Part shown: one piece after another, positions 21,837 through 41,938 of the stretch
Layout: each line of letters begins with the position of its first letter
Position numbering within the stretch: the stretch's first letter is position 1
Source of the DNA: Yuukianura sp. NJ FZ-2021
Taxonomy: Eukaryota
NCBI GenBank assembly: GCA_046563655.1
Contig: CM102286.1
Location: 15,252,001-15,316,000 of the forward strand
Length of the DNA stretch: 64,000 nt
Reading direction: 5' to 3'
The notes under the pieces: model-generated
Told to the model about the DNA's origin: nothing
The model's database searches: none
What the model saw: only the letters and a program-made list of their open reading frames with translations
Program-made: the position numbers and the translations under genes

Positions 21837-24800
21837 TCATCCGCTGTAGTCATTGGCTGTCGTGATGAGAGTGGCAAGAACTGAGGCTGTGTTGGACGTG
21901 GGACTCACTGCCGAGTGATTGGAGTTTGAATTGCTGTGCAGAGCAGAGTTCGTGGGGCACTTGGGCTTCCCGTGCTTCACTCGCACATGCGCATTGAGGT
22001 TGTCACTGCGTGTGTAGACACAGGGGCAGTAGGGACAGGCATAAGTGCCAGGCATGTGCACGAACCGGTGCTTCCTTCCGCGAACCAACTTCCCACACAA
22101 CTTGCACCGCTTCAAGTGCGGACTCCCTTTCACCTTCTCAAAGATCGAACCGAAGATCCGACCTGCAATGCAAAACAACCAAAGTAAACAACTTTGAGAC
22201 TGAAACGTTGTGAAAATGTTACCGAATAACGCATCTTTACTTTGGATTGAAGTTAGTTGAACTTTGACCACACAATTTAACAAATTCAGTTTTAATTCTA
22301 AAATCCCCATCCCAATAACATAGTAACTAGTAGTAAGCACTACAATTATTTCTCATAACCAAAGAAAGAGGAAGTTAGGGAAACATTTTGGCTCTAATTT
22401 GAAGGTGGGCCTCGCTTTGGTTCAAGTGGTTTGGTGATTGTGGGTGGGGCGAAGGTAGGTAGGTGGGAATGTGGTTGAACGTCCACTTTGTGGTACACTT
22501 TGAGATGATTTCTGAGCGTGGACTCTCGTGGGTACTCGTGGCTGCACAAATAGCACACGAAGCTCCTCCCCCGCCCTCCTCCGTAAACTTCCGGTAAAGA
22601 TCCTCTACTTGTTCGTCTCCCCGGCAGAAACGAGGTCAAGGTCACTGCAGAGCTGGATCTAAGCGGGAAGGGAACTCCGTGAGGAAGTGGCTGCCCTCTG
22701 TGGACATGAATTGTGTCCCGTGTCCCACCCACCCTTGTGGCCACCTTGATTGGAGTGGAGTGAGAACTGGACGCTTCCCTCCCTACGCCAACTGCAACCA
22801 ACAAAACAAAGGTTGGGAGTAGTTGAGCCACCACTTTAACAATCTAACTCCAGTTCTCACTCCAGTTCCTCACTATAACTTTAATCTCTTCTCCCAAAAA
22901 CTTAAAAACTACCAAGAATTTAACACTTTTTGTTGTGTAGTTTCATAATAAAAATGTACAAGTAAAGTTGAATGCATACCATCCTGAACGTCAAGCCCAT
23001 CCAGATTTGCAGAGCCTAGTTCAGATCCATCTTTGTCATCGTCACTTGTAGACTTGTCCTGGAATTCACAAATTATAAAGTTACAAGTAGTTATACTTCG
23101 TATTTAGTGTTTAAATTTTTAAGTAAAAGTACCAAGAGTGAGGCAGCATGTGGGTAGTAGCCAATGGAGTAGCCACCTTCATCCAACTCCTCGTCATCAT
23201 CGTCGTCGTCCTCCGCCTTGATGTCCATGTTCAAACCATCCTCATCATCGTAGTCCTCTCCATCATCTTCTCCAGCGTCTCTCTCGAGCACTGGCATGAG
23301 GAAAGAAGTAGGTTCCACGAGCGTCTGCCCACTCTCCGTCATTGAACTCACACGCACTGGGTTCTTCACTTTTCCACTCGACCTAATGGCTATCAGCCCC
23401 GGAGGGGAAGGACGACCCCCTGATGATGAAGAAATAGACACTGAATCAGCTCCTCGACACTGCTCTACTTTGGCCATCTAAAATACAAACAATATTCACC
23501 AACAATTTAAAAACAGTTTGACTTTACACAAAACTGAATTTGTATTAAAAATCTGACAATACTAAAAAATGTACGGTTTATTTGTCTGTCTCAAATGGGG
23601 GATTTTTGCCCCCGATTGGCCAAGCTATTGGTTCCCTGTTTTCTTTTTCAGTATATTTGACATTATGTGAATTCTAAAAATTCCACAACATTCTTTTTAT
23701 CTTTTTTAAAACACCAGTTGAACGGGCGAAGCCCCAGTAAGCATGCTTAGCATCCCTAGTATGTACTCTCTGGCTACTACAAAACAAATATGACCTTGGT
23801 AAGTAGTAGCCACAGAGTACATACTACTTATGGTTAAAAGATAAACAGTGGGGATACTTCCAGTGGCTGATTTTTGTTAATTTTATATACCTGCTTTCTA
23901 GCAATGATTTTATGGTTAAAAGACAAACAGTGGGGATACTTCCAGTGGCTGATTTTTGTGAATTTTGTATACCTGCTTTCTAGCAATAATTTTATGGTTA
24001 AAAGCCAAACAGTAGGGATACTTCCAGTGGCTGATTTTTGTGAATTTTGTATACTTGCTTTCTAGCAATGATTTTATGGTTAAAAGACAAACAGTGAGGA
24101 TACTTCCAGTGGCTGATTTTTGTTAATTTTGTATACTTGCTTTCTAGCAATGATTTTATGGTTAAAAGACAAACAGTGAGGATACTTCCAGTGGCTGATT
24201 TTTGTGAATTTTGTATACCTGCTTTCTAGCTATGATTTTATGGTAGTAGTCCCTCAAGTAACAATTACCAGGAGGCTTGCAATTTTCTGGGACGAAGTCC
24301 CAGCAAGCATGCTTTGCATTCTTGTTAAAAACTAAAATCGAATAAAAATCGTAACTTACGCTGGAGTCTTCGTCGCCGCTGCTGTTGGATAGTCGTCGTT
24401 TCTTGTGTCTGTTGGAAGCGTGTGTTTCAGGCGTGCGTGGTTCCGTTGTGTTGGAGGTGGGTGGGTGCGGGGCAGAGGGGTGTCTGGTGGCTGTGGCGGG
24501 TGGAGTTGGTGGCGTGCCTGAGTCGGGGTCGTTGGAAGAGGAGTCGCATCCCTCTGTGAGTCCGCGTATTTTTAAGGCCTCTGCAGTTTTGAGGAAGTCT
24601 GACAAAGTGGACTGAGAGACGTTGACCTCTCCTTTGTACATGAAAGAGAGGAGAGCCTTCATCTCCTGCCCCTTGATGTCCTTCATGAAGATGATGGGAT
24701 GTGGGTGGGCGTTCTTGACAAGGACACTTTCAAAGTAGGGGAGCAGGCGGAGAGGACTGTTTGGTGGGCCTTGAAGGTCTGTCCTTCGCAGGCCAGCGTC

Positions 24801-24904
24801 ACATCGGTTAGAGCTTCCTCCTGCAGCAGTCGGTCCATGACCTCTGCGAAGTTGGACGCATGGTTGTTCCAGCGGAGACAAAAGTGCTGGTCAATCCCAC
24901 CCAT
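21837..24904 (-). CDS. fru: Fruitless-like BTB-zinc-finger transcription factor with alternative terminal zinc-finger exons; apparent 1-bp frameshift in the BTB exon
   Basis: The BTB domain [11 protein letters not shown]...[34 protein letters not shown]...[12 protein letters not shown]...[11 protein letters not shown]...FLKTAE closely resembles Fru. Common exons: 24360-24904, ~23133-23477, 22980-23058. Terminal exons: 22394-22791 (single C2H2) and 21837-22162 (CKLCGK...HMPG...YTRSDNL, FruC-like). Orthology is from recalled similarity, not a search. Confidence 0.75.
23826..24245. repeat. ~82-bp minisatellite (same family as 17900-18450) in a fru intron
   Basis: gggatact at 23851, 23933 and onward; about 5 copies. 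Confidence 0.9.
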
Positions 24905-27798
24905 CTCACTTACTCCTGAAATAAACAATTAACTTCATTAACTTTTCCAGTATTTAGTCCAATGTACAAAAACCATAGTATTTGGAAGGGTTGACTATGC
25001 CTAGACAAGAATGTTTCCTTGGAAAAGGACTTGAGAGAGAGTGGAAGTGGTTCCTTGGGTGTGGGTAGGGTTGCCATGGAGACTCCAGGAAGTTCCCTTG
25101 GCAATCGATGGGAAGGGAGAGGGGAACCTTCATTTAAGGCTCTTTCTCCCCTCCGATCAATAAGTCCCTCCACGAAGGGTCTGGACAAGTGCTGGAATTA
25201 CTCATCCCATGACTCACCCTCTCAGCTGACTCTCACATGCGCACTCTGACCTCCTTTAAATCCACACTAACTAATCAAGTAATGAAGTACCTGAGTAATT
25301 AAGTCGAAGAGCCTTGGAGTGACTAAGTAGCTGATTAAGATGAAATTAGGACTGTAGTTGCAATTAGGAAGTGAATGGACTGTAGGTGGGTCCTTAGGAG
25401 AGTGTGGGTGACTGCCCTTCGTCTTCCGCTTCCACTCGTCTTCTGGAGGAGTCTCCCTTCATTCCCATGCATTGGACCCCATTCCAAGGGGACCACCAAG
25501 GGGCTCCTCACACGCAAACTCACTCTCCTTCAAATCACAAAATTATGCACAGAGGACTACACTGTAAGGAACCACTCAGTCATATAACAAAATCCACACA
25601 AAAATGGAAAAACACCTAACAAAATTAAGAATCCTACGAACAATTCCCCTTGTATTTCCTAAATGTTGATGCCAAGGACTGGAATTGGCGGGAATGACTA
25701 AGGAGGGACACTTTGAGAGAATGTATCTAAAAGTATTTGGTGAGAAGAAGATGAGGCTGAGTGTGGGTGGGAGTCGAAGGCATTCTGAGGGGCCATTGAC
25801 CCTGAGAAGGGAGAGCCAGGAACCCTGCTCTCTGCTCTCTCATCCCTATCCCTCCTCCGGTCAAATTCCAGCACGAGGCAAGGCAGTCACTGCCCTCCAC
25901 TCAAATGATCTGGGAGTGAAGGGGTCCAAAGGCACTCCCAACGCAATCTCTGCACCTCTTTTTGCAACCGGATAAATCCACCTGCAAAACCCCCTTGGAT
26001 GGCTAAAATTGGACAGGAGAGGGAGAGATGAGGAGGGAGGATGGCCTTCGGAACATTCAATGGGAAGATCTAACTATTTCTGTTCCTTCTCCCAAGCTCC
26101 ACAACCACAATTACGCAATTCATTCCCATACTACACAAGTGACCTTCCAAAATTTAACACTACCTTACAATACATACAATAGTAGATGCAGTCGATCAGA
26201 GAGCCCTTGAGGCACAGGTAGAGCACTTCACAATGCAAAGTACCTCATTAACATCCATCTTGAGAAGGGCAAAGGGCCCATTGCGCAACTTCAAACACCT
26301 CCATTTACTCTATTCAATTTAACCTCATTTTAATCCTGAATGCGAAACCACGGAAAGTAGACTCTCCTATTCCACTTTACGATACTCCGCAATGGATTCC
26401 ATTACTATCCATACTTAACCAGAATGTAAACCACTTTGAGAAAGGAGGAAAAAAGTGGATGGAACCATTTTGTCTAGTCCTGGCTCAAGTAAAACCCATC
26501 AATTCCACTGAATCGTATGTCCAGAACTGAGATTGTACTTAAGAATGAAGTACTTACGTGAGTAGTCCGAGTAAGTATAAAGTTGACCTTTGGGTGACCC
26601 TTCGAATGTAGTGACTAGAGCTGAGGGTGAACCTGTTGCGTGTCCAGTGACTGGAGTGTTGTTAAGGTGCCATTGGAGGAGTAACTGAGTGGTGGCCACT
26701 TGAGTCCCAAAGTGGGAGTTGTGGTCTCCCTGCCCTGTTTAGTGACAAGGCATGCCAAGGGAGGAGACTCCCTTCCCTCCTGGCCCATGCTAAACACAGT
26801 TCCAGCCAACTTCAGTCTCTGCCACTCAACCACTCTCAACACACGCAGCATTTGCCCAACTAATAGCACCTCTTAGTAATACTCCCGTCAAATATTACTA
26901 TTTTCACTCCAAAATCACCTGTTTACGTCAAAATAAATACAACCACAAAAATCAATACACATTACTGGATATAGTACTTGGGACACAGTACGGATTTAAA
27001 ATTAAATTCAAAATTCAAACTGGGATTATTTTTCAAAAAGGTTACAAAAGAAATCAAAAATGGCGCTAAGAAAAACTGGAGCTGCGAAAAATAAACTGAC
27101 CCTCGCGCTGTTTCGGAAACAATCGTTAATAAATGTTAAAATACAAAATAAACCGGGTATGAAATAAATTTCCAAATAAAGTTAAGAAATTTCGGAAATA
27201 TCCATCAGAAATTAGTCACAATTCCAAATAAATGAAACCGGGTATGAAATTTTGAAACAAACGTAAGAAATTGGTAAGATATCCATCAGAAATAAAAGAA
27301 AAGTAAGGGTTTTTCTTTTAACCGTTAGATTTTCTCATTATTTCGCGTCGCATGCAGATGCGATTCGACTTTCGCATTGGCTGACGGAGTACTTAATTAC
27401 ACAAGTGGCACAGACTGGTCTCAGCCTCTCCCTCGGCTCTACTAACGAACATACACACACCCAGTCACCCACGCCTCACAGCTGGGCATCCTCAAATCTA
27501 CAAAATTAAAAACAAAAATAAAATTGAAATCAAGACAAAAATAATAATAATAATAAAAATCAATAAAATGTAGATTAATTGAGGCAACTTTACTGGCTCT
27601 CAATAAATTATTGTTATATTTAAACTTGGTTTGAGGGACTTACATAGTCTTACCTGAACAAAATGTTTAATTTAAACAAAGTTCGGAATGAAGCGGAGGT
27701 GGATGAGATTCGGGGTGCCTAAAGTTGACCTTGGGGAAGGAAATTGTTAAAGGAAGCTATGAATAAACATTAAAAGTTAAAATTAGTGTAGATTTGAA

Positions 27799-34085: not shown

Positions 34086-34667
34086 CACTTCTCACGTCCA
34101 CTGAAAAGGTAAAACAAGGAATTAGCATTCACAACTCCATAAATCTACTCTTATCTTTACATTCGTTGACATTTCTTACAGATGAACACTTTGAGTAGAA
34201 GTGTGTTGTCCTTTGTCTAGTTGTGTTGTCACTCTGGAATGCACTGTAACAGCCACTCATAACACACCAACTGACTAATCCCCATCACAACATCCATTAA
34301 CCACTTCAATTACTTCAATTAATCGTGATTAATTATAAAAGACCGGAGCCCTTTGCTTTTGACTGACTGAAGAAATGAATATGAATTGTTTTTGAGAGGC
34401 AACTAAAAAACTCCTCCCTTCTATGAGGAGAAGGAACAAATTCGGCAAAACGGCGCTTCGATTGTTTGCGAACAAAATATCATTTTATATCAATTTTTGG
34501 GCGTAGATTCCGAATCTGAAATCCGTTTTTAGCGGTCGCACCTCCTTCCTGGTAAGATTAATTAATTAACATTTTAATTAACAGTGAATGCATTTCATAT
34601 GTAGAATGAGTTTGTAACCAATGGAGATTCGAATTTATTGTTGTTATATGCTAACCAAACCTAACGC

Positions 34668-35237
34668 GCGATTTCCCGGGGTTATCGCCATATCTGTGGT
34701 AGATCTGCTAGGGCGATTTCCCGGGGTTATCGCCATATCTGTGGTAGATCTGCTAGGGCGATTTCCCGGGGTTATCGCCATATCTGTGGTAGATCTGCTA
34801 GGGCGATTTTCCGGGGTTATCGCCATATCTGTGGCAGATCTGCTAGGGCGATTTCCCGGGGTTATCGCCATATCTATGGTAGATCTGCTAGGGCGATTTC
34901 CCGGGGTTATCGCCATATCTATGGTAGATCTGCTAGGGCGATTTCCCGGGGTTATCGCCATATCTATGGGAGATCTGCTAGGGCGATTTCCCGGGGTTAT
35001 CGCCATATCTATGGTAGATCTGCTAGGGCGATTTCCCGGGGTTATCGCCATATACGTTGTAGATCTGCGAGGGCGATTTCCCGGGGTTATCGCCATATAC
35101 GTTGTAGATCTGCGAGGGCGATTTCCCGGGGTTATCGGCATATCTGTTGTAGATCTGCGAGGGCGATTTCCCGGGGTTATCGGCATATCTGTTGTAGATC
35201 TGCGAGGGCGATTTCCCGGGGTTATCGCCATATCTGT
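34668..35237. repeat. 45-bp GC-rich tandem repeat, ~12.5 copies
   Basis: Unit gcgatttcccggggttatcgccatatctgtggtagatctgctagg. It produces the 15-aa periodic ORFs seen on both strands. Confidence 0.95.
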
Positions 35238-35689
35238 TTTTTACCAAATGCACGTAAACGAATAACTGTTACTTTCACTGTCAGCTGTAGTTGAATCCAA
35301 TCAGAAATTGATTTCGTGGAAAGCTGATGTAGTGAGAGACCGTGGATGACAATCTTGAGATGCTTTTCATTTATGGGCGTGGTATTGCCCCGCGGAAGCG
35401 GCAATTCCAGAATTTTTGAAAATTTGAGTTCGAAAATAATTTTTAGATTGGTAAACTGTGCTAGGTCAGCGGCAGAGAATTCGTATGTTCCAATTAGACT
35501 TATTAGACTTTCTAAACAAAATGTAGCAACTTCCATTGCAGGATTTAATAGCTACAATAGTTTGGTCAGAATAGAGGCTGAAGGAGAGGAACTCGGTGAC
35601 AAGTCTGCACTGGGTGACGTCTCAAATCGAACTCCTTTTCTGAGTCTAGCAACATCTTTACTATAGAAATTGAAAAATTCGAATTTTTC

Positions 35690-35975: not shown

Positions 35976-36758
35976 TTTATTATTTTTTTTATTTATTTGT
36001 TACTCTCCCTGCGGGCCCAAAGCCCATGGAGAGGGAGTTCGATTTGAATTCTAATAACATATGAGTTGTTCCTATAACTACAGTGAGAAATGGTACTGTG
36101 CGTTAAGTTGTTAAAAATGGTTAGATTAAGTTGAGACCAAAGATGAGGGTGTAGTGGTGACGTCATTTTCGTTGTCTCTTCTCCTTAAATTTTGCTTTGG
36201 CTTCGGCTAGCTTGACTTTCAATAAGGACTGGTTTATGCTGGTTAGTGATTCATCGTTGATGGAACCGTATAATGTGGCAATTTCGGTCTTGAAAGCATC
36301 TCGGCTTTGCGATGCAGCTGACCAGCGCATGAAGCTAGGTTAGCTGCATTAGGAAGCTTTGCTAGGAAGCTTTTTTTATTCGTATTTAGTATGGTGGATT
36401 GACATATTTTTTATTATTTATTTGTTATTTCTTTATTATTTATTATCTCTTTAAATACCTTTTCTGTGCCTTTTCCTTTATTAACAAAAAAAAAAGTTCC
36501 ACGAAGAAAATTTAAGTCGCAGGGTTGAGTGTTCTGGAAGAGATTTCCCCCCACATGGTTCTCTTTTATCAATCTTTATTTTTGTGGGTCCAACAAAGGA
36601 ACACACACACCCAACTCCCTCCCTATGCAGAGATGGACACAAATTCATGTTATTAAACCTCTTACAGCGGATTTACTTTTAATTAATTAAGACTGGTTTA
36701 TTATTTTTTAAATTAACAACTAGTTTGAACAATTATTGTTCAGTGCTAATATTAACAT

Positions 36759-37581
36759 TGTAAGATAAGGAATTTACGTAGTGGTTAAATTAAGGGACTT
36801 CTCTTCCGCTCTAATTTGAAACCCCAACCTTTTCCGTTCCTATCCTTACGTTTTTCCCGGGCCCTTAGCAGTTTCACCTTGAAAGGGGGTTTCTTCCCTT
36901 CCAAGGGCCGACCGGTCACTCAAGGTCACGACTTGACCTCCTTTTTACCTCTGGTAGTAGTAGAAAGAAATTGGCCTCAGTTGATCAGCTACTCCAGCCC
37001 GTTATTGATCTCGAGTACTCCAGCCCGAAAATCCAGAATCCCGCACCCCAGTGCCGCACCAAACCAACTCCACACGAACCAACCAACCAGTACTAACTAC
37101 CAATAACTCACATGCCGCGGTACACAGCAATTTAAGGGGTCACCAACCCCGTGACATGAGACTGAGATGTTGTGAGTTCAATTCCAAACAACAAAAAGAG
37201 AAAACCGCGCCGCGCCGATTTACCGCGCTCAAATCGCTAAGATAATGTGAAAACCAATTGTGGAAAACCAAATGAGAAAAACTCTAATTGAATAACACGT
37301 AGATGAAACGGTAATGAACGAAAAACGAAACGGTACTTTACGGTAAACGAAACGGAATGAAACGAAAATGCCGAACCCTAATCCGCCGAGCCCTACGAGA
37401 ATGTCAGGATAGCTCCAACATTCGAACCACCTGGTGGCAGGCAAGTTATCTCACCACTGTCCACCGTACCTGTGACGTCTTCTTGATCCGGCAGCATGAC
37501 TGGGTCCCGAGTGTATGGAAGATGAGCTCCTGCTACCCTTTTCCATGTAAAAGGCAGCCTCATCCATACACTCCTTTTACA
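36759..37581. mobile_element. Possible solo LTR or other retroelement fragment
   Basis: A higher-GC non-coding block bounded by TGTAA...TTACA, with internal hairpins. No TSD could be matched. Confidence 0.3.
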
Positions 37582-37910
37582 ATTTAAAACAACAGAAGAG
37601 AGTAGCAGCTGATCTAATTGTACTTAGTACTAATCAACTTTCTTCTAGGAGTTGATTAGTACTAAGTTGGAGATGATCGGAGTCCCTAACTTCATTTAAA
37701 ATTCGATTAATTAGTCGTGGTTGAGTTTGTGTTTTTTCCTGCCTTTTGACTTGGAAGTGAAAAGATGAAAAGTGGAAGAGTTGTCCCTAAACTACCAATA
37801 GAGGGCGCGCGCTTCTCTTTCTTGTTATGAACATGACGCTATCTTTGCAGTCTCACAACATTTAATAGTTACCTCAATTGTATGCTCAATTGATTGAAGA
37901 ACTTAAATTC

Positions 37911-39053
37911 CTAGATCGGAAGATGACTGGAAGTTACGTCTGACGCAGTGACATTAACGCCCAAGTACCGCTCTCTGGAAACTTGGTCAGCATAGCTGAG
38001 ACAAGTACCCATGAAGGTACACTGCACAACACGCAGGAACTCGGCCACTCCCTCCATGTCCCCGTAAGTCTCCTCCAGAATCTCCAGCATCACTTCCATG
38101 TCCCGCACTTCGGCACAGAAGGAGTCCACTGCCTCGGAAAACGACTGCTCAAGGCCCCACCCTCGCTCAATAACATTCCTAAGGATGCTGGAGTCCTTCC
38201 AGGCATTCTCAGCCACATCCCGCTTCACACCAACTATCGCATTGAGCAGAGCAGTTCCATTTCCAAAGGAATCCATCAGCATCTGGAACAACAACGTTTT
38301 CCTGACGACTGGAGGCACAGAGGCAACTCCAGTCAATAAGGCATTCCCCTCCACTGCCATTCGCATCCCATGCACAAACTGACCCATGCTCCTCCTGTAA
38401 GTCACATTCGACAGAGACATGGATGGTTTTGATTTAGCAGCGAGAGACAAGTAGGAGGAAATGGCAGAGCAGTTGGATTCTTCCAGCAAGTGCTCCATCT
38501 CCCCAGCATCCTTGGCGTGTTGAGAAAGTGCAGAGATGGCTTGGCTGAAGCCATTGAGCAGCACTTCCAGCATATTTCCGTCTTCCGAACTTCCGTTGTG
38601 CAGAATCTGTGGAAGGAAACTGTTCAGATTAGAGTGAGGTTGGCCGAGGACTGAGATAAAAGCAAGAAGGATTCTGTAGTTGGTGACTCCGTCCATGATG
38701 GACACAGCAGAGTCCACGATGTCGTCCAGTAGAATAGCATGGACCATGAGGTTGACCATTGCCCGTAGTCCAGCACTTTGTTCCCAGTCCAAAGTGGGGT
38801 TTTGGTAGATGGCCATCAGGAGGGGCAGACCCACCTTCTTGTGTCCAGGAAAGTGTTTGAAGGTGGCTCCAACTTCCAAAGTCATTTCGTCCAGTCGATC
38901 TCTGTCCACTGCGGGCAGTTCGTAGTCACAATTGGAAAGCAGAGGAAGCTTAGCTTTGAGGTTGAGTGCCTTTCCGAATGTGGGGTGTTGGATCGGCCCC
39001 ACATCCACTTCCAGTTCCCACCCCATCACGACTCTTCTTACATTCTGAGTCAT
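37911..39053 (-). CDS. Intronless microbial-type class I terpene synthase-like protein (380 aa)
   Basis: Single ORF with DDIVD (DDxxD, 38712-38726), a YRR segment (possible pyrophosphate-sensor Arg), an NSE-like LLNAIVGVKRD (NAIVGVKRD at 38217-38243) and a C-terminal RY pair (37965-37970). Motif order and spacing match single alpha-domain terpene cyclases. Confidence 0.75.
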   Translation of the reverse strand: MTQNVRRVVMGWELEVDVGPIQHPTFGKALNLKAKLPLLSNCDYELPAVDRDRLDEMTLEVGATFKHFPGHKKVGLPLLMAIYQNPTLDWEQSAGLRAMVNLMVHAILLDDIVDSAVSIMDGVTNYRILLAFISVLGQPHSNLNSFLPQILHNGSSEDGNMLEVLLNGFSQAISALSQHAKDAGEMEHLLEESNCSAISSYLSLAAKSKPSMSLSNVTYRRSMGQFVHGMRMAVEGNALLTGVASVPPVVRKTLLFQMLMDSFGNGTALLNAIVGVKRDVAENAWKDSSILRNVIERGWGLEQSFSEAVDSFCAEVRDMEVMLEILEETYGDMEGVAEFLRVVQCTFMGTCLSYADQVSRERYLGVNVTASDVTSSHLPI

Positions 39054-39462
39054 CTCCACTCCTTTTATACTAAAATCATACTCAAAATATACTTTAGTTA
39101 GATAATGAGATTAAGAGTGGTAATTGATGTGTTTGTTGGAGATCCGGGTAGTGGGAACTTTTGTTGAGTTGTGAAACAAAGTAGAGCGATTGTTGAAGGA
39201 GATGCGCACAAACACTTATCTAGACAATCTTAATTTGAGAATACTATGTAAATTGGGTAATTGTTCAATTGCTCAACCAGGAAATAGGGCGAGATGTTGA
39301 GATACTTAATTCCCTACTTCCAGTGACTGGAGTAATTGGAATGAAGAAATTCCAAGTACAAAGTGATTACGTTTTAATTCCTATTTCGTTTAGTTAATTG
39401 GTAGCGTACCTTAGTATTGCTGAGTCGCAATAGTGGAAAACATTAGGAAAGAATGAGTTTTG

Positions 39463-40453
39463 TTAGGCCTTGGGATCCCCGTAAGCATCCGGCATTCGCT
39501 CAATCGTGAACCGATGTTGAGAGATGTACATGATGGGAACTCCAGGGATTTTTCTTATGCGCCTCTTCAAGTCCTTGTCACAAGTGCCCACTATGTAGCA
39601 TTTGTGCTGGAAAAACAAAGTAAAAGTAAGTTACAAACAGCGAATCAAAACATTTGATCATTCTTTATTGAATATTTGAATTTGAAACTGTAAAAGTACT
39701 GACCTGTGTGACCCTTTGCACGAGACAGTCGTCTGCATAAGTCCCTTTGTGGAAGCAGGGGAGGCGGTGGAAACGAGGGTCCTTCACAATCTTGAGTGCA
39801 ATTCTGTAGCGAGATCCCAGCTTCTCCAGTTCACCCATGACACAGTCAGTGATGTAGGGAGTGCCTATGTCACAAGAATCATCAGTCACTTTACTTCTAC
39901 TAGGAAGATGCGTACTTGTGCTTACATTTGGCATAGAGACAGTCCATGAGAGACTGGTAAATGTCCAGTTTGTTCTTGATTGCAAAGTTGATAAAGTTTG
40001 TGTCCAGTAGAATGTGGTAGGGCGGTCCAAGTTGTGTGTTGTACTCGAAGAACAAGGCAGAAGACGTCTGTGGCCTACAAATAACAACGGTCACTTCAAT
40101 TTCCAGTTTTTATAGGGTCAAAGTGGATTAACTTTGGGACTCACAGTTCCTTCTTTGTGGGCTCCTTTGGAGCTTGTTCCTTGGCTTTCTTCTGCACTCG
40201 GTCTTTGGCTTTCCTGTTTACAAACGTCATTGATAAGATGACTATTGAAATGAGCCTTCCAGTTTAAATGTACTGAAAGGAACGAAGTGATTCGGATGGA
40301 CTTACAGCCTGGGATCGTTGAGACTGATCATTCGCTTCATTTTGGCAAAGTCCTGCCTTGCTCCACGCGTCTTCTTGTTACGACCCTAAGAAAAAACAAT
40401 AAGAAATACAAAGAAACACTCTTCATATATAATGAAGATTCTATTATTACCAT
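39463..40453 (-). CDS. FCF1: rRNA-processing PIN-domain protein FCF1/UTP24
   Basis: [75 protein letters not shown]. The first coding exon is ATG only (40451-40453). Confidence 0.95.
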
Positions 40454-41938
40454 GTTAGTTGTTCCGTTTAGAAGTAATGTCACTCCAGCTGTCAATTGAT
40501 TAAACCCCGATGTTCTATGATGTTCTATATTGTTTAGAAGTTGATTAACCGATCAACTAATCCAGGATTACTAATCGTTAATTCAACAAAAGACCAAACA
40601 ACACATGTTTCCAAAAAAAAATATTTAAAAGAAGTGGTGGACGATTCGACAGAATCCGCAGATTCGGCGGAGTGCATGAGTTGCGGGTTTCGCAGGAATA
40701 AAAAGTTAGCACAGTCGCAGGAATAAAACGTGGAACTAGACTTTAGAAACGTATTAATTATAATTAATTAGGATTTTTAGCGTACTCACACTAAAGTATG
40801 TTAAAGATATTGGATTAAGTAATTTATAAAGTTGCAAGCTGGCAGACTTGACTTATCGCAGCAAAGGAAAGATGCTTCATGGTAAACGGTACGCGAACTG
40901 TGCTGTCTTCACAAAAACTCTTCCCACTCAGTTGACGTCAACGTCAATTCCATCCATTGTTACCACAATCAAATTAATTACAATTCTTACATTTAACAAT
41001 AACTACACGATATGTATTATTTGTGATTTACTCAAATTCTCAACCTGCCATTAGCAGGTGCATGATTTTATTTGTAAAACTAAGTTTGTTTAAATTAATT
41101 TAATTACTGCCGATTTTAACACTAAGTTGAGGTTTTTTTTTAAGTTTTGGATACAAATATAATTTTTTCGATGTAACCACTGATTTACTAGCATATGTCG
41201 ATTGCGCAAGTGGTCATAGCGTTTATACTATTGCCTGGTTACAATGAGTTTAATTTCGGTTACTTCAACAGAATATCGGGTTCAAATGTAGACTGATCGC
41301 CTTTGTTGTAACCACTATTGCTGCTATCGCCGCCGCCGTAGCTCTAACCACTGAGCTAGCGATATGGTGTTACACTGAGATTTTGATTGATGGCTATGCT
41401 AGATGGTGACAATGTAACTACCGGTTACGTATTCTTAATAAATACGCAATCTAGATTTTTGATTGCGGCGCGAAATGTTATGGTCACAAGTGAGAAAATG
41501 CATGTTCGTGTCAACCATTGTGTTGTGTTTGAAATGCCCAGCTGAGAGGTCATGTGATTGATTTTGTGTATTTTGATTGGTGGGGATTTGCCTCTCCTTC
41601 TCTTGTTCTTTCGATTGAACTTTTGTTTGTGCTGTTATACATTAAATTGATAGGAAGGAAAGGTCACGATCGGTCAATTCCAGGTCAAGTGGTTGTGTTG
41701 TGTGGACATAACCATGAAGTACCCTTGATACTCGTCCTGGAATCCACCTTTTCATAACCGTGTGTGGATCCGTCGTCCCACACTTTGGCCTCGTCCTTTC
41801 GTTGAAGTTGAGTGCAGAAGTTGAATTACGCAATCAGGTACTCCTCTTCTTTACTTGGATTTCATGTGGTTGTGTATCAATCGACCTCTTTAATAGGCAA
41901 TTGATTTGGTGGATCCTTGACTTGGTGCCGTTTGAAGG

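Follow-up and report, generated by a model that had tools for sequence, protein, structure and literature searches.

A single-exon gene for a very divergent class I terpene synthase of microbial type in an arthropod, probably springtail, genome

The 64,000-nucleotide stretch of contig CM102286.1 analyzed here (assembly GCA_046563655.1, positions 15,252,001 to 15,316,000, Yuukianura sp. NJ FZ-2021; hereafter, the window) contains on its minus strand a single ATG-to-stop open reading frame (ORF) that encodes a protein of 380 amino acids, which we describe as a very divergent class I terpene synthase. In the ORF listing of the window, the frame occupies 37911..39053, with a stop-to-stop extent of 37911..39110, and its ATG at 39053 lies 409 bp from the stop codon (39463-39465) of FCF1, the upstream neighbor on the same strand. 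A preliminary description of this DNA, made from its letters, had given the same coordinates, the motifs (a DDxxD, an NSE-like motif, and a terminal RY pair), and a distance of about 410 bp to FCF1, all of which are correct. The features of the gene are as follows.

37911..39053, minus strand: divergent class I (α-domain) terpene synthase, single-exon ORF, 380 amino acids
38943..39020, minus strand: N-terminal β-hairpin, residues 12-37, with the motif G-x-I-x-H-P-x-F-G-K
38712..38726, minus strand: DDIVD, aspartate-rich metal-binding motif, residues 110-114 (D110, D111, and D114)
38367..38396, minus strand: helix-G break region, R220-G229, with Gly224 in the column of the pyrophosphate-sensor Arg
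38217..38243, minus strand: NAIVGVKRD, residues 271-279 (N271, G275, and D279), a variant of the NSE/DTE triad
37965..37970, minus strand: RY pair, R362-Y363, right after the last long helix
39063..39069, minus strand: TATAAAA-like box read from the sequence, 10-16 bp upstream of the first ATG
37861..37866, minus strand: ATTAAA, a possible poly(A) signal, 45 bp past the stop codon

DDIVD is the sole DDxxD of the protein, as found by a scripted motif scan. The NSE-like motif reads N-A-x-x-G-x-x-x-D; i.e., the Asn and the last acidic residue are retained, and the middle Ser/Thr is replaced by Gly. NAIVGVKRD therefore departs from the canonical triad, (N/D)Dxx(S/T)xxx(E/D), in its middle Gly and in its second residue, Ala. 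The layout of DDxxD, NSE-like motif, and RY pair proposed in the preliminary description is thus borne out for the first and the last, and the NSE-like motif stands only in this altered form. In an alignment of 22 family members (A1), which was also the source of the PDB profile search and the AlphaFold model described below, N271 and G275 are invariant, and D110, D111, D114, D279, R362, and Y363 are kept in at least 90% of the sequences. Because the order and spacing of the motifs fall on invariant or nearly invariant columns of this alignment, the motifs are not chance occurrences. In a later family table, the middle position of the triad is Gly in all 32 rows, and the hairpin motif is found in 10 of the 32; the rows that do not have it may be truncated gene calls. 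Residues 19-363 of the protein align to residues 2-358 of P0001, its nearest relative, and since the ORF thereby spans the whole homologous length, no further exon is needed.

With the protein alone as the query, neither Pfam nor NCBIfam returned a terpene synthase family even at E ≤ 10, the best matches being Focal_AT (0.019) and YfbU (0.074), respectively. The models PF03936, PF19086, and PF06330 were all unmatched at that threshold, and a phmmer search of the PDB sequences gave kinases as the best matches (0.26) and no terpene synthase. A phmmer search against 1.84 billion representative proteins identified 24 relatives at E ≤ 1e-3. The best of them, P0001, was found at 1.9e-66 with 38-39% identity; the others were found at 2.8e-13 or weaker and are at most 34% identical, except for an 80-residue fragment at 41%. 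PF19086 (Terpene_syn_C_2) is matched by 18 of the 24 relatives at E ≤ 0.01 and by 16 at E ≤ 1e-3, and 12 exceed Pfam's own cut-off for this family. By sequence, the protein can be placed in the PF19086 family only transitively, via these relatives and the family profile. When the A1 profile was searched against the PDB, the first matches were solved class I terpene synthases, i.e., Copu9 (7ofl, 2.8e-8) and BcBOT2 (8h6q, 2.9e-8), and further matches were TaTC6, T-muurolol synthase, AcCop4, and 10-epi-cubebol synthase.

The AlphaFold model computed from the single sequence was poor (pLDDT 35); the model computed on A1 reached a pLDDT of 84.4 and a pTM of 0.87. The latter is a helical bundle with a β-hairpin at residues 12-37 (pLDDT about 89-94) and a C-terminal strand at residues 367-372. 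DDIVD is located at the C-terminal end of helix 94-114, and the break between helices 216-227 and 230-241 corresponds to the helix-G kink of terpene synthases. N271 ends helix 254-274, G275 is at a short break, and D279 is in the next turn. Every row listed by Foldseek is a bacterial or fungal class I terpene synthase (best E 5.3e-7, TM up to 0.80). The alignment with selinadiene synthase (4okm_B) by VIA-align gave a Z-score of 29.7 and an rmsd of 2.8 Å over 312 aligned residues. All 50 VIA-align entries listed fall between Z-scores of 27.2 and 29.7. Two of these entries, DabA and KabA, are N-prenyltransferases that share the fold, and the remaining 48 are terpene synthases. A feature search of the ESM Atlas likewise returned terpene synthase families in 30 of 30 matches (score 0.95, 210 of 256 features). 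The solved enzymes 4okm, 8h6q, 7ofl, and T-muurolol synthase (9hq entries) share the fold with Z-scores of 27-30 and rmsd values of 2.8-3.2 Å over about 300 residues, and their motif positions coincide with those of the window family in the profile alignments. On the other hand, the identity to these bacterial and fungal enzymes is 8-15%, and the window protein differs from them in the change of Ser to Gly, in the missing sensor Arg, and in the extra N-terminal β-hairpin.

The α-helical terpenoid synthase fold, the aspartate-rich motif, and the C-terminal RY pair are thus all present. Because four independent routes agree, i.e., the relatives that lead to PF19086, the family profile, the AlphaFold structure with its fold matches, and the language model, the identification of the protein as a single-domain (α) class I terpene synthase of microbial type, as the preliminary description had it, is supported. 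The structure prediction suggested there found the terpene synthase fold, and the comparison of PF19086 with the polyprenyl synthetase family PF00348 gave a divided answer, in that neither is matched by the protein itself and PF19086 is matched by most of the relatives. Insect terpene synthases that arose from isoprenyl diphosphate synthases (IDS) are also an animal source of terpenes, but they belong to PF00348 and carry two aspartate-rich motifs. An IDS-derived synthase was rejected, since the window protein has no PF00348 match and one DDxxD, not two, and the top fold matches are all terpene synthases.

A family tree and a motif table divide the family into two groups according to the residue after the NSE Asn. 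In the ND group (N-D-x-x-G-L-x-K-D), 11 of the 12 distinct sequences have an Arg at the position 46 residues ahead of the Asn. This column aligns with R206 of BcBOT2 in the A1 profile search and is the pyrophosphate-sensor position named in the literature (PMC13638087). In the non-ND group, which has Ala, Cys, Gly, or Ser after the Asn, none of the 11 distinct sequences has an Arg in the sensor column, and 4 have an Arg one position later. P0001 has Gly in this column, as does the window protein, in which R220 and R221 sit 3-4 residues, one helical turn, before G224. With one ND exception, the sequences of the Gly-type family have both this Asp and the sensor Arg or neither of them. This co-occurrence in the alignment suggests that the two residues may work as a pair, and the coupled changes follow the tree and may represent one or two events only.

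A Gly in the middle of the triad has been described in sponges, where 12 of 13 characterized synthases carry NDxxGxxxD and are active sesquiterpene synthases (PMC9992776), and where AcT1TS6, with NNxxGxxxD, makes cembrene B (PMC13483135). Neither the triad Ser nor the second-position Asp is therefore indispensable. The sponge type I synthases (uBuTS and AcT1TS1-10) share with the window protein the middle Gly, the terminal Asp, and the RY pair; they are biochemically active, and their genes are mostly single-exon among intron-bearing animal genes (PMC9992776 and PMC13483135). The second triad residue, however, is Asp in the sponge NDxxGxxxD and Ala in the window protein. No named sponge enzyme was present among the 18 relatives (of 24) that were looked up. 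Dataset2 of PMC13483135, with 30 sponge and 100 bilaterian synthases among its sequences, was spot-checked for signature peptides of the family, none of which was found; the sole DDIVDS match in these peptide checks was an unrelated sequence with a canonical NDxxSxxxE. The Gly/Asp likeness to the sponge enzymes may be convergent. Among the papers searched for these motifs, NDxxGxxxD was found only in the two on sponges (PMC9992776 and PMC13483135), and NAxxGxxxD was found in none.

We rate it as somewhat better than an even chance that the locus is a host-encoded, single-exon arthropod (probably springtail) gene for a very divergent α-domain class I terpene synthase that is active. The fold, the motifs, the family relationship, and the linkage to host genes are established by the analyses, and expression, activity, substrate, and product are inferred. 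By analogy with solved enzymes, the protein, if expressed, would bind a prenyl diphosphate, most likely farnesyl diphosphate (FPP), geranylgeranyl diphosphate (GGPP), or geranylfarnesyl diphosphate (GFPP), by way of Mg2+ ions in a cluster. D110 and D114 would hold this cluster from one side, and N271, D279, and the G275 position from the opposite side, with a water molecule or a backbone contact at the G275 position replacing the usual Ser/Thr hydroxyl. R278, R362, and Y363 would clamp the diphosphate, and its ionization would start a carbocation cascade that leads to a cyclic or linear terpene.

Several observations weigh against this reading. The protein alone matches no terpene synthase in Pfam, NCBIfam, or the PDB sequences, the usual Asp after the NSE Asn is Ala, and Gly224 occupies the column of the pyrophosphate-sensor Arg. 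In bacterial terpene synthases, loss of the sensor Arg usually cripples activity. Furthermore, the window haplotype carries a 1.1-kb repeat 54 bp past the stop codon, and the allele differences listed inside the ORF in the contig of the public run X1 (E56Q, L59S, and L378P) are all nonsynonymous; these three come from the best-supported differences listed, with 267 more over the 5-kb stretch, so that no rate can be derived from them. Mainly because the sensor Arg is missing and no precedent for this was found in the papers drawn on here, activity is rated no higher than a modest lead over an even chance.

Tentatively, and with the balance on the other side, the gene may belong to an undescribed animal branch of terpene synthases characterized by N-A-x-x-G-x-x-x-D, the lack of the sensor Arg, and the N-terminal β-hairpin, in which the diphosphate would be gripped and ionized unlike in all the characterized class I synthases. 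This proposal follows from the fact that the sensor Arg and the Asp next to the Asn are lost together. It is unlikely that the fold has been kept and the chemistry changed, the product of the gene being a pseudo-enzyme, a binding protein, or an enzyme with altered diphosphate handling, e.g., intermolecular prenyl transfer. Such a change would be in keeping with the Gly in the sensor column and the Ala after the Asn, which co-occur throughout the non-ND branch, and with the appearance of DabA and KabA in the top structural tier. These two have the longest aligned stretches among the VIA-align rows listed, reaching the N-terminal part (DabA, 6vkz, Z-score = 28.2, 339 aligned residues, model residues 6-378; KabA, 9m1w, Z-score = 27.2, 346 aligned residues). 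However, DDxxD, the Asn and Asp of the triad, R278, and the RY pair are conserved, as a Mg2+-dependent ionizing enzyme needs, and neither DabA nor KabA was found by the profile search of the PDB sequences. The hallmark of DabA is the loss of DDxxD (NDxxA), with its canonical N-T-E triad kept (bioRxiv 10.1101/2020.03.31.014811). The window protein is the reverse, with DDIVD kept and the triad altered, and a DabA-type prenyltransferase was rejected by these motifs.

The features flanking the terpene synthase gene are as follows.

36754..37856, no strand assigned: high-copy repeat DNA insertion, 1,103 bp, starting 54 bp after the terpene synthase stop codon
39373-39378: ATTAAA of FCF1
39463..40109, minus strand: FCF1, 3' exons of the upstream neighbor on the same strand, with an intron-split Fcf1 domain

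Contigs of public runs were aligned to positions 36500-41500 of the window. The X1 contig (11,889 bp) extends without a break from 37857 to 40989, so that the ORF, the FCF1 exons, and the spacer between them lie on one contig. Since 73 of its letters over 3,133 bp differ from those of the window, it represents a second haplotype or individual; the run is possibly from the assembly's own sample, i.e., it is another assembly but not necessarily another animal. Because this contig from another assembly joins the ORF to FCF1, the ORF is host DNA. The block at 36754-37856 is absent from the contigs of X1, X2, X3, and X5 (joint 36753>37857, where 6 letters fit both sides). Its contig word depth is in the thousands, against about 60-230 in the flanks, and sub-terminal inverted repeats are located at 36790-36810 and 37771-37791; its appearance is that of a transposon insertion that is polymorphic. 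The insertion begins 4 bp beyond the only ATTAAA after the terpene synthase stop codon. In the contigs of X1 and X2, the 397 bp at 40989-41387, upstream of FCF1, are replaced by 78 other letters, which is a second structural difference between the haplotypes.

These haplotypes bear on a reading that we consider less likely still, namely, that the gene is a silent or decaying paralogue, i.e., a pseudogene so young that its ORF has stayed open. The springtail genomes surveyed are rich in terpene synthase paralogues, with an average of 13 (PMC13638087), each of the three allele differences listed for the ORF alters the amino acid, and the repeat lies close behind the only poly(A)-like hexamer. 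Against this, the 380-codon ORF is open in the window haplotype, the second haplotype is covered by an unbroken contig, and an allele free of the insertion also exists. In addition, all columns of the catalytic motifs are kept in comparison with a relative at 38-39% identity, which points to long purifying selection on the lineage.

In FCF1, positions 9-68 of the Pfam Fcf1 profile fall in ORF 39665-40090 and positions 62-99 in ORF 39463-39630, both on the minus strand, and since the two parts lie in separate ORFs, the domain is split by an intron. The other Pfam-recognizable genes of the window lie on both sides of the terpene synthase, each spread over several ORFs. In addition to FCF1, they comprise an Ig-domain gene, an ankyrin-repeat gene, BTB and C2H2 zinc-finger exons, a BAZ1/Acf1-like gene (WHIM1, WSD, and PHD), a sugar transporter, and GTP cyclohydrolase I. 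This spread fits the earlier statement that the terpene synthase is the only intronless gene, as judged from ORFs rather than from full gene models. The GC content of the ORF is 51.4% (59% at third codon positions [GC3]), and that of the neighboring exons is 43-56% (GC3 36-66%). The 64-kb window gave no Rfam match. At 34618-35265, in the interval from the zinc-finger region to the terpene synthase, a 45-bp unit is repeated in tandem roughly 14 times; the array stays open in several frames, e.g., as repeated ...GRFPGVIAISVVDLL....

The BTB exon at 24683-24928 on the minus strand starts with FCLRWN. This matches FxLRWN, the signature of TTK-type BTB domains, a type reported only from arthropods in the work drawn on here (PMC11426971). 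The host is therefore taken to be an arthropod. An ESM Atlas search with the same exon returned both Chordata and Arthropoda clusters. The domain is split over the overlapping minus-strand frames 24683-24928 and 24162-24890 (...SACSP / YFESV...) within a run of C, the result of either a genuine frameshift or a single-base error in the assembly.

As for the transcription of the terpene synthase, if the TATAAAA-like box is used, transcription would start within codons 1-9 and translation would begin at Met10 (39026), the residue that aligns with the start of the relative P0025. Because the gene has this box of its own upstream and FCF1 has its own ATTAAA, a transcript separate from that of FCF1 is plausible. 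A retrocopy origin was also considered, and neither a poly(A) tract nor a flanking duplication was seen around the ORF. Microbial contamination or a chimeric assembly join, to which the lack of introns and the unnamed metagenome proteins that are the nearest database relatives could point, is very unlikely, as the preliminary description had argued from the nearness of FCF1, since the ORF and FCF1 are linked by a contig of a second assembly and haplotype, the ORF is flanked on either side by animal genes, its composition is host-like, and a search of prokaryote genomes, one for each of 185,579 species, which reaches close relatives only, found no relative.

The preliminary description had implied that a microbial-type terpene synthase in such an animal was new. 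This does not hold, as this kind of gene is already known from springtails, mites, and sciarid flies. Chen et al. (2024) reported microbial-type terpene synthases in sciarid flies, 12 species of acariform mites, and two springtails (PMC11665903), and Wang et al. (2026) reported 277 terpene synthase genes in 21 of 26 springtail genomes, of which 152 have introns and 125 (45%) are intronless (PMC13638087). The intronless state of the window gene is therefore not special. In Sinella curviseta, four of five enzymes were active on substrates from FPP to GFPP (PMC13638087). The arthropod enzymes (ScTC1-5, FcTPS/AfTPS, and those of mites and sciarid flies) and the window gene are alike in being animal-encoded, composed of the α-domain only, often intronless, and set among intron-bearing host genes, and in having DDxxD and RY. 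They differ at the diphosphate site, where ScTC1-5 have NDxxSxxxE and the sensor Arg (PMC13638087), whereas the window protein has NAxxGxxxD and Gly in the sensor column. Both surveys picked their genes by PF03936, PF19086, and PF06330 (PMC11665903 and PMC13638087); these models miss the window protein, although a cut-off of E ≤ 1e-3 would admit 16 of its 24 relatives. The N-terminal sequence W-x(4-6)-G-x(2)-H-P-x-F/Y of ScTC1, ScTC2, ScTC3, and ScTC5 in the published material resembles by eye the W..G-P-I-Q-H-P-T-F hairpin of the window protein. This likeness hints that the gene could belong to the springtail radiation, as a rapidly evolving member, rather than being an import of sponge type.

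The 18 relatives that were looked up all come from short metagenome contigs and are either unnamed or labeled "hypothetical" proteins. A homologue search with the window protein returned only P0001, a search with the family alignment returned only P0012, and searches of metagenome contigs with the alignment A3 and with P0025 found no related loci. Because there is no close bacterial or fungal relative and no match in the search for close relatives among the prokaryote genomes, and because the composition is host-like, a recent transfer is excluded. The origin may be an ancient horizontal transfer or an old animal or lineage-specific family. A role in defense or in the cuticle, as raised in the preliminary description, is pure conjecture.

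Microbial-type terpene synthases encoded by animals are a recent discovery, made in corals and sponges in 2022-23 and in arthropods in 2024-26, and the window gene adds little to the fact of their existence. Of interest here is the combination of the Gly/Asp triad, the Ala after the Asn, the missing sensor Arg, and the invisibility to the Pfam models. The gene indicates that a conserved member can fall under every Pfam threshold applied in published counts for arthropods. At the diphosphate site, it combines the lack of the sensor Arg with a Gly/Asp triad that has so far appeared in print for sponges alone, so that its activity bears on whether the textbook set of residues is needed. If the undescribed branch tentatively proposed above is real, its most divergent members would escape Pfam-based surveys, and the terpene synthase diversity of arthropods would be undercounted. 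If the enzyme is active, the profile built from its family would be a practical tool for rescanning arthropod genomes.

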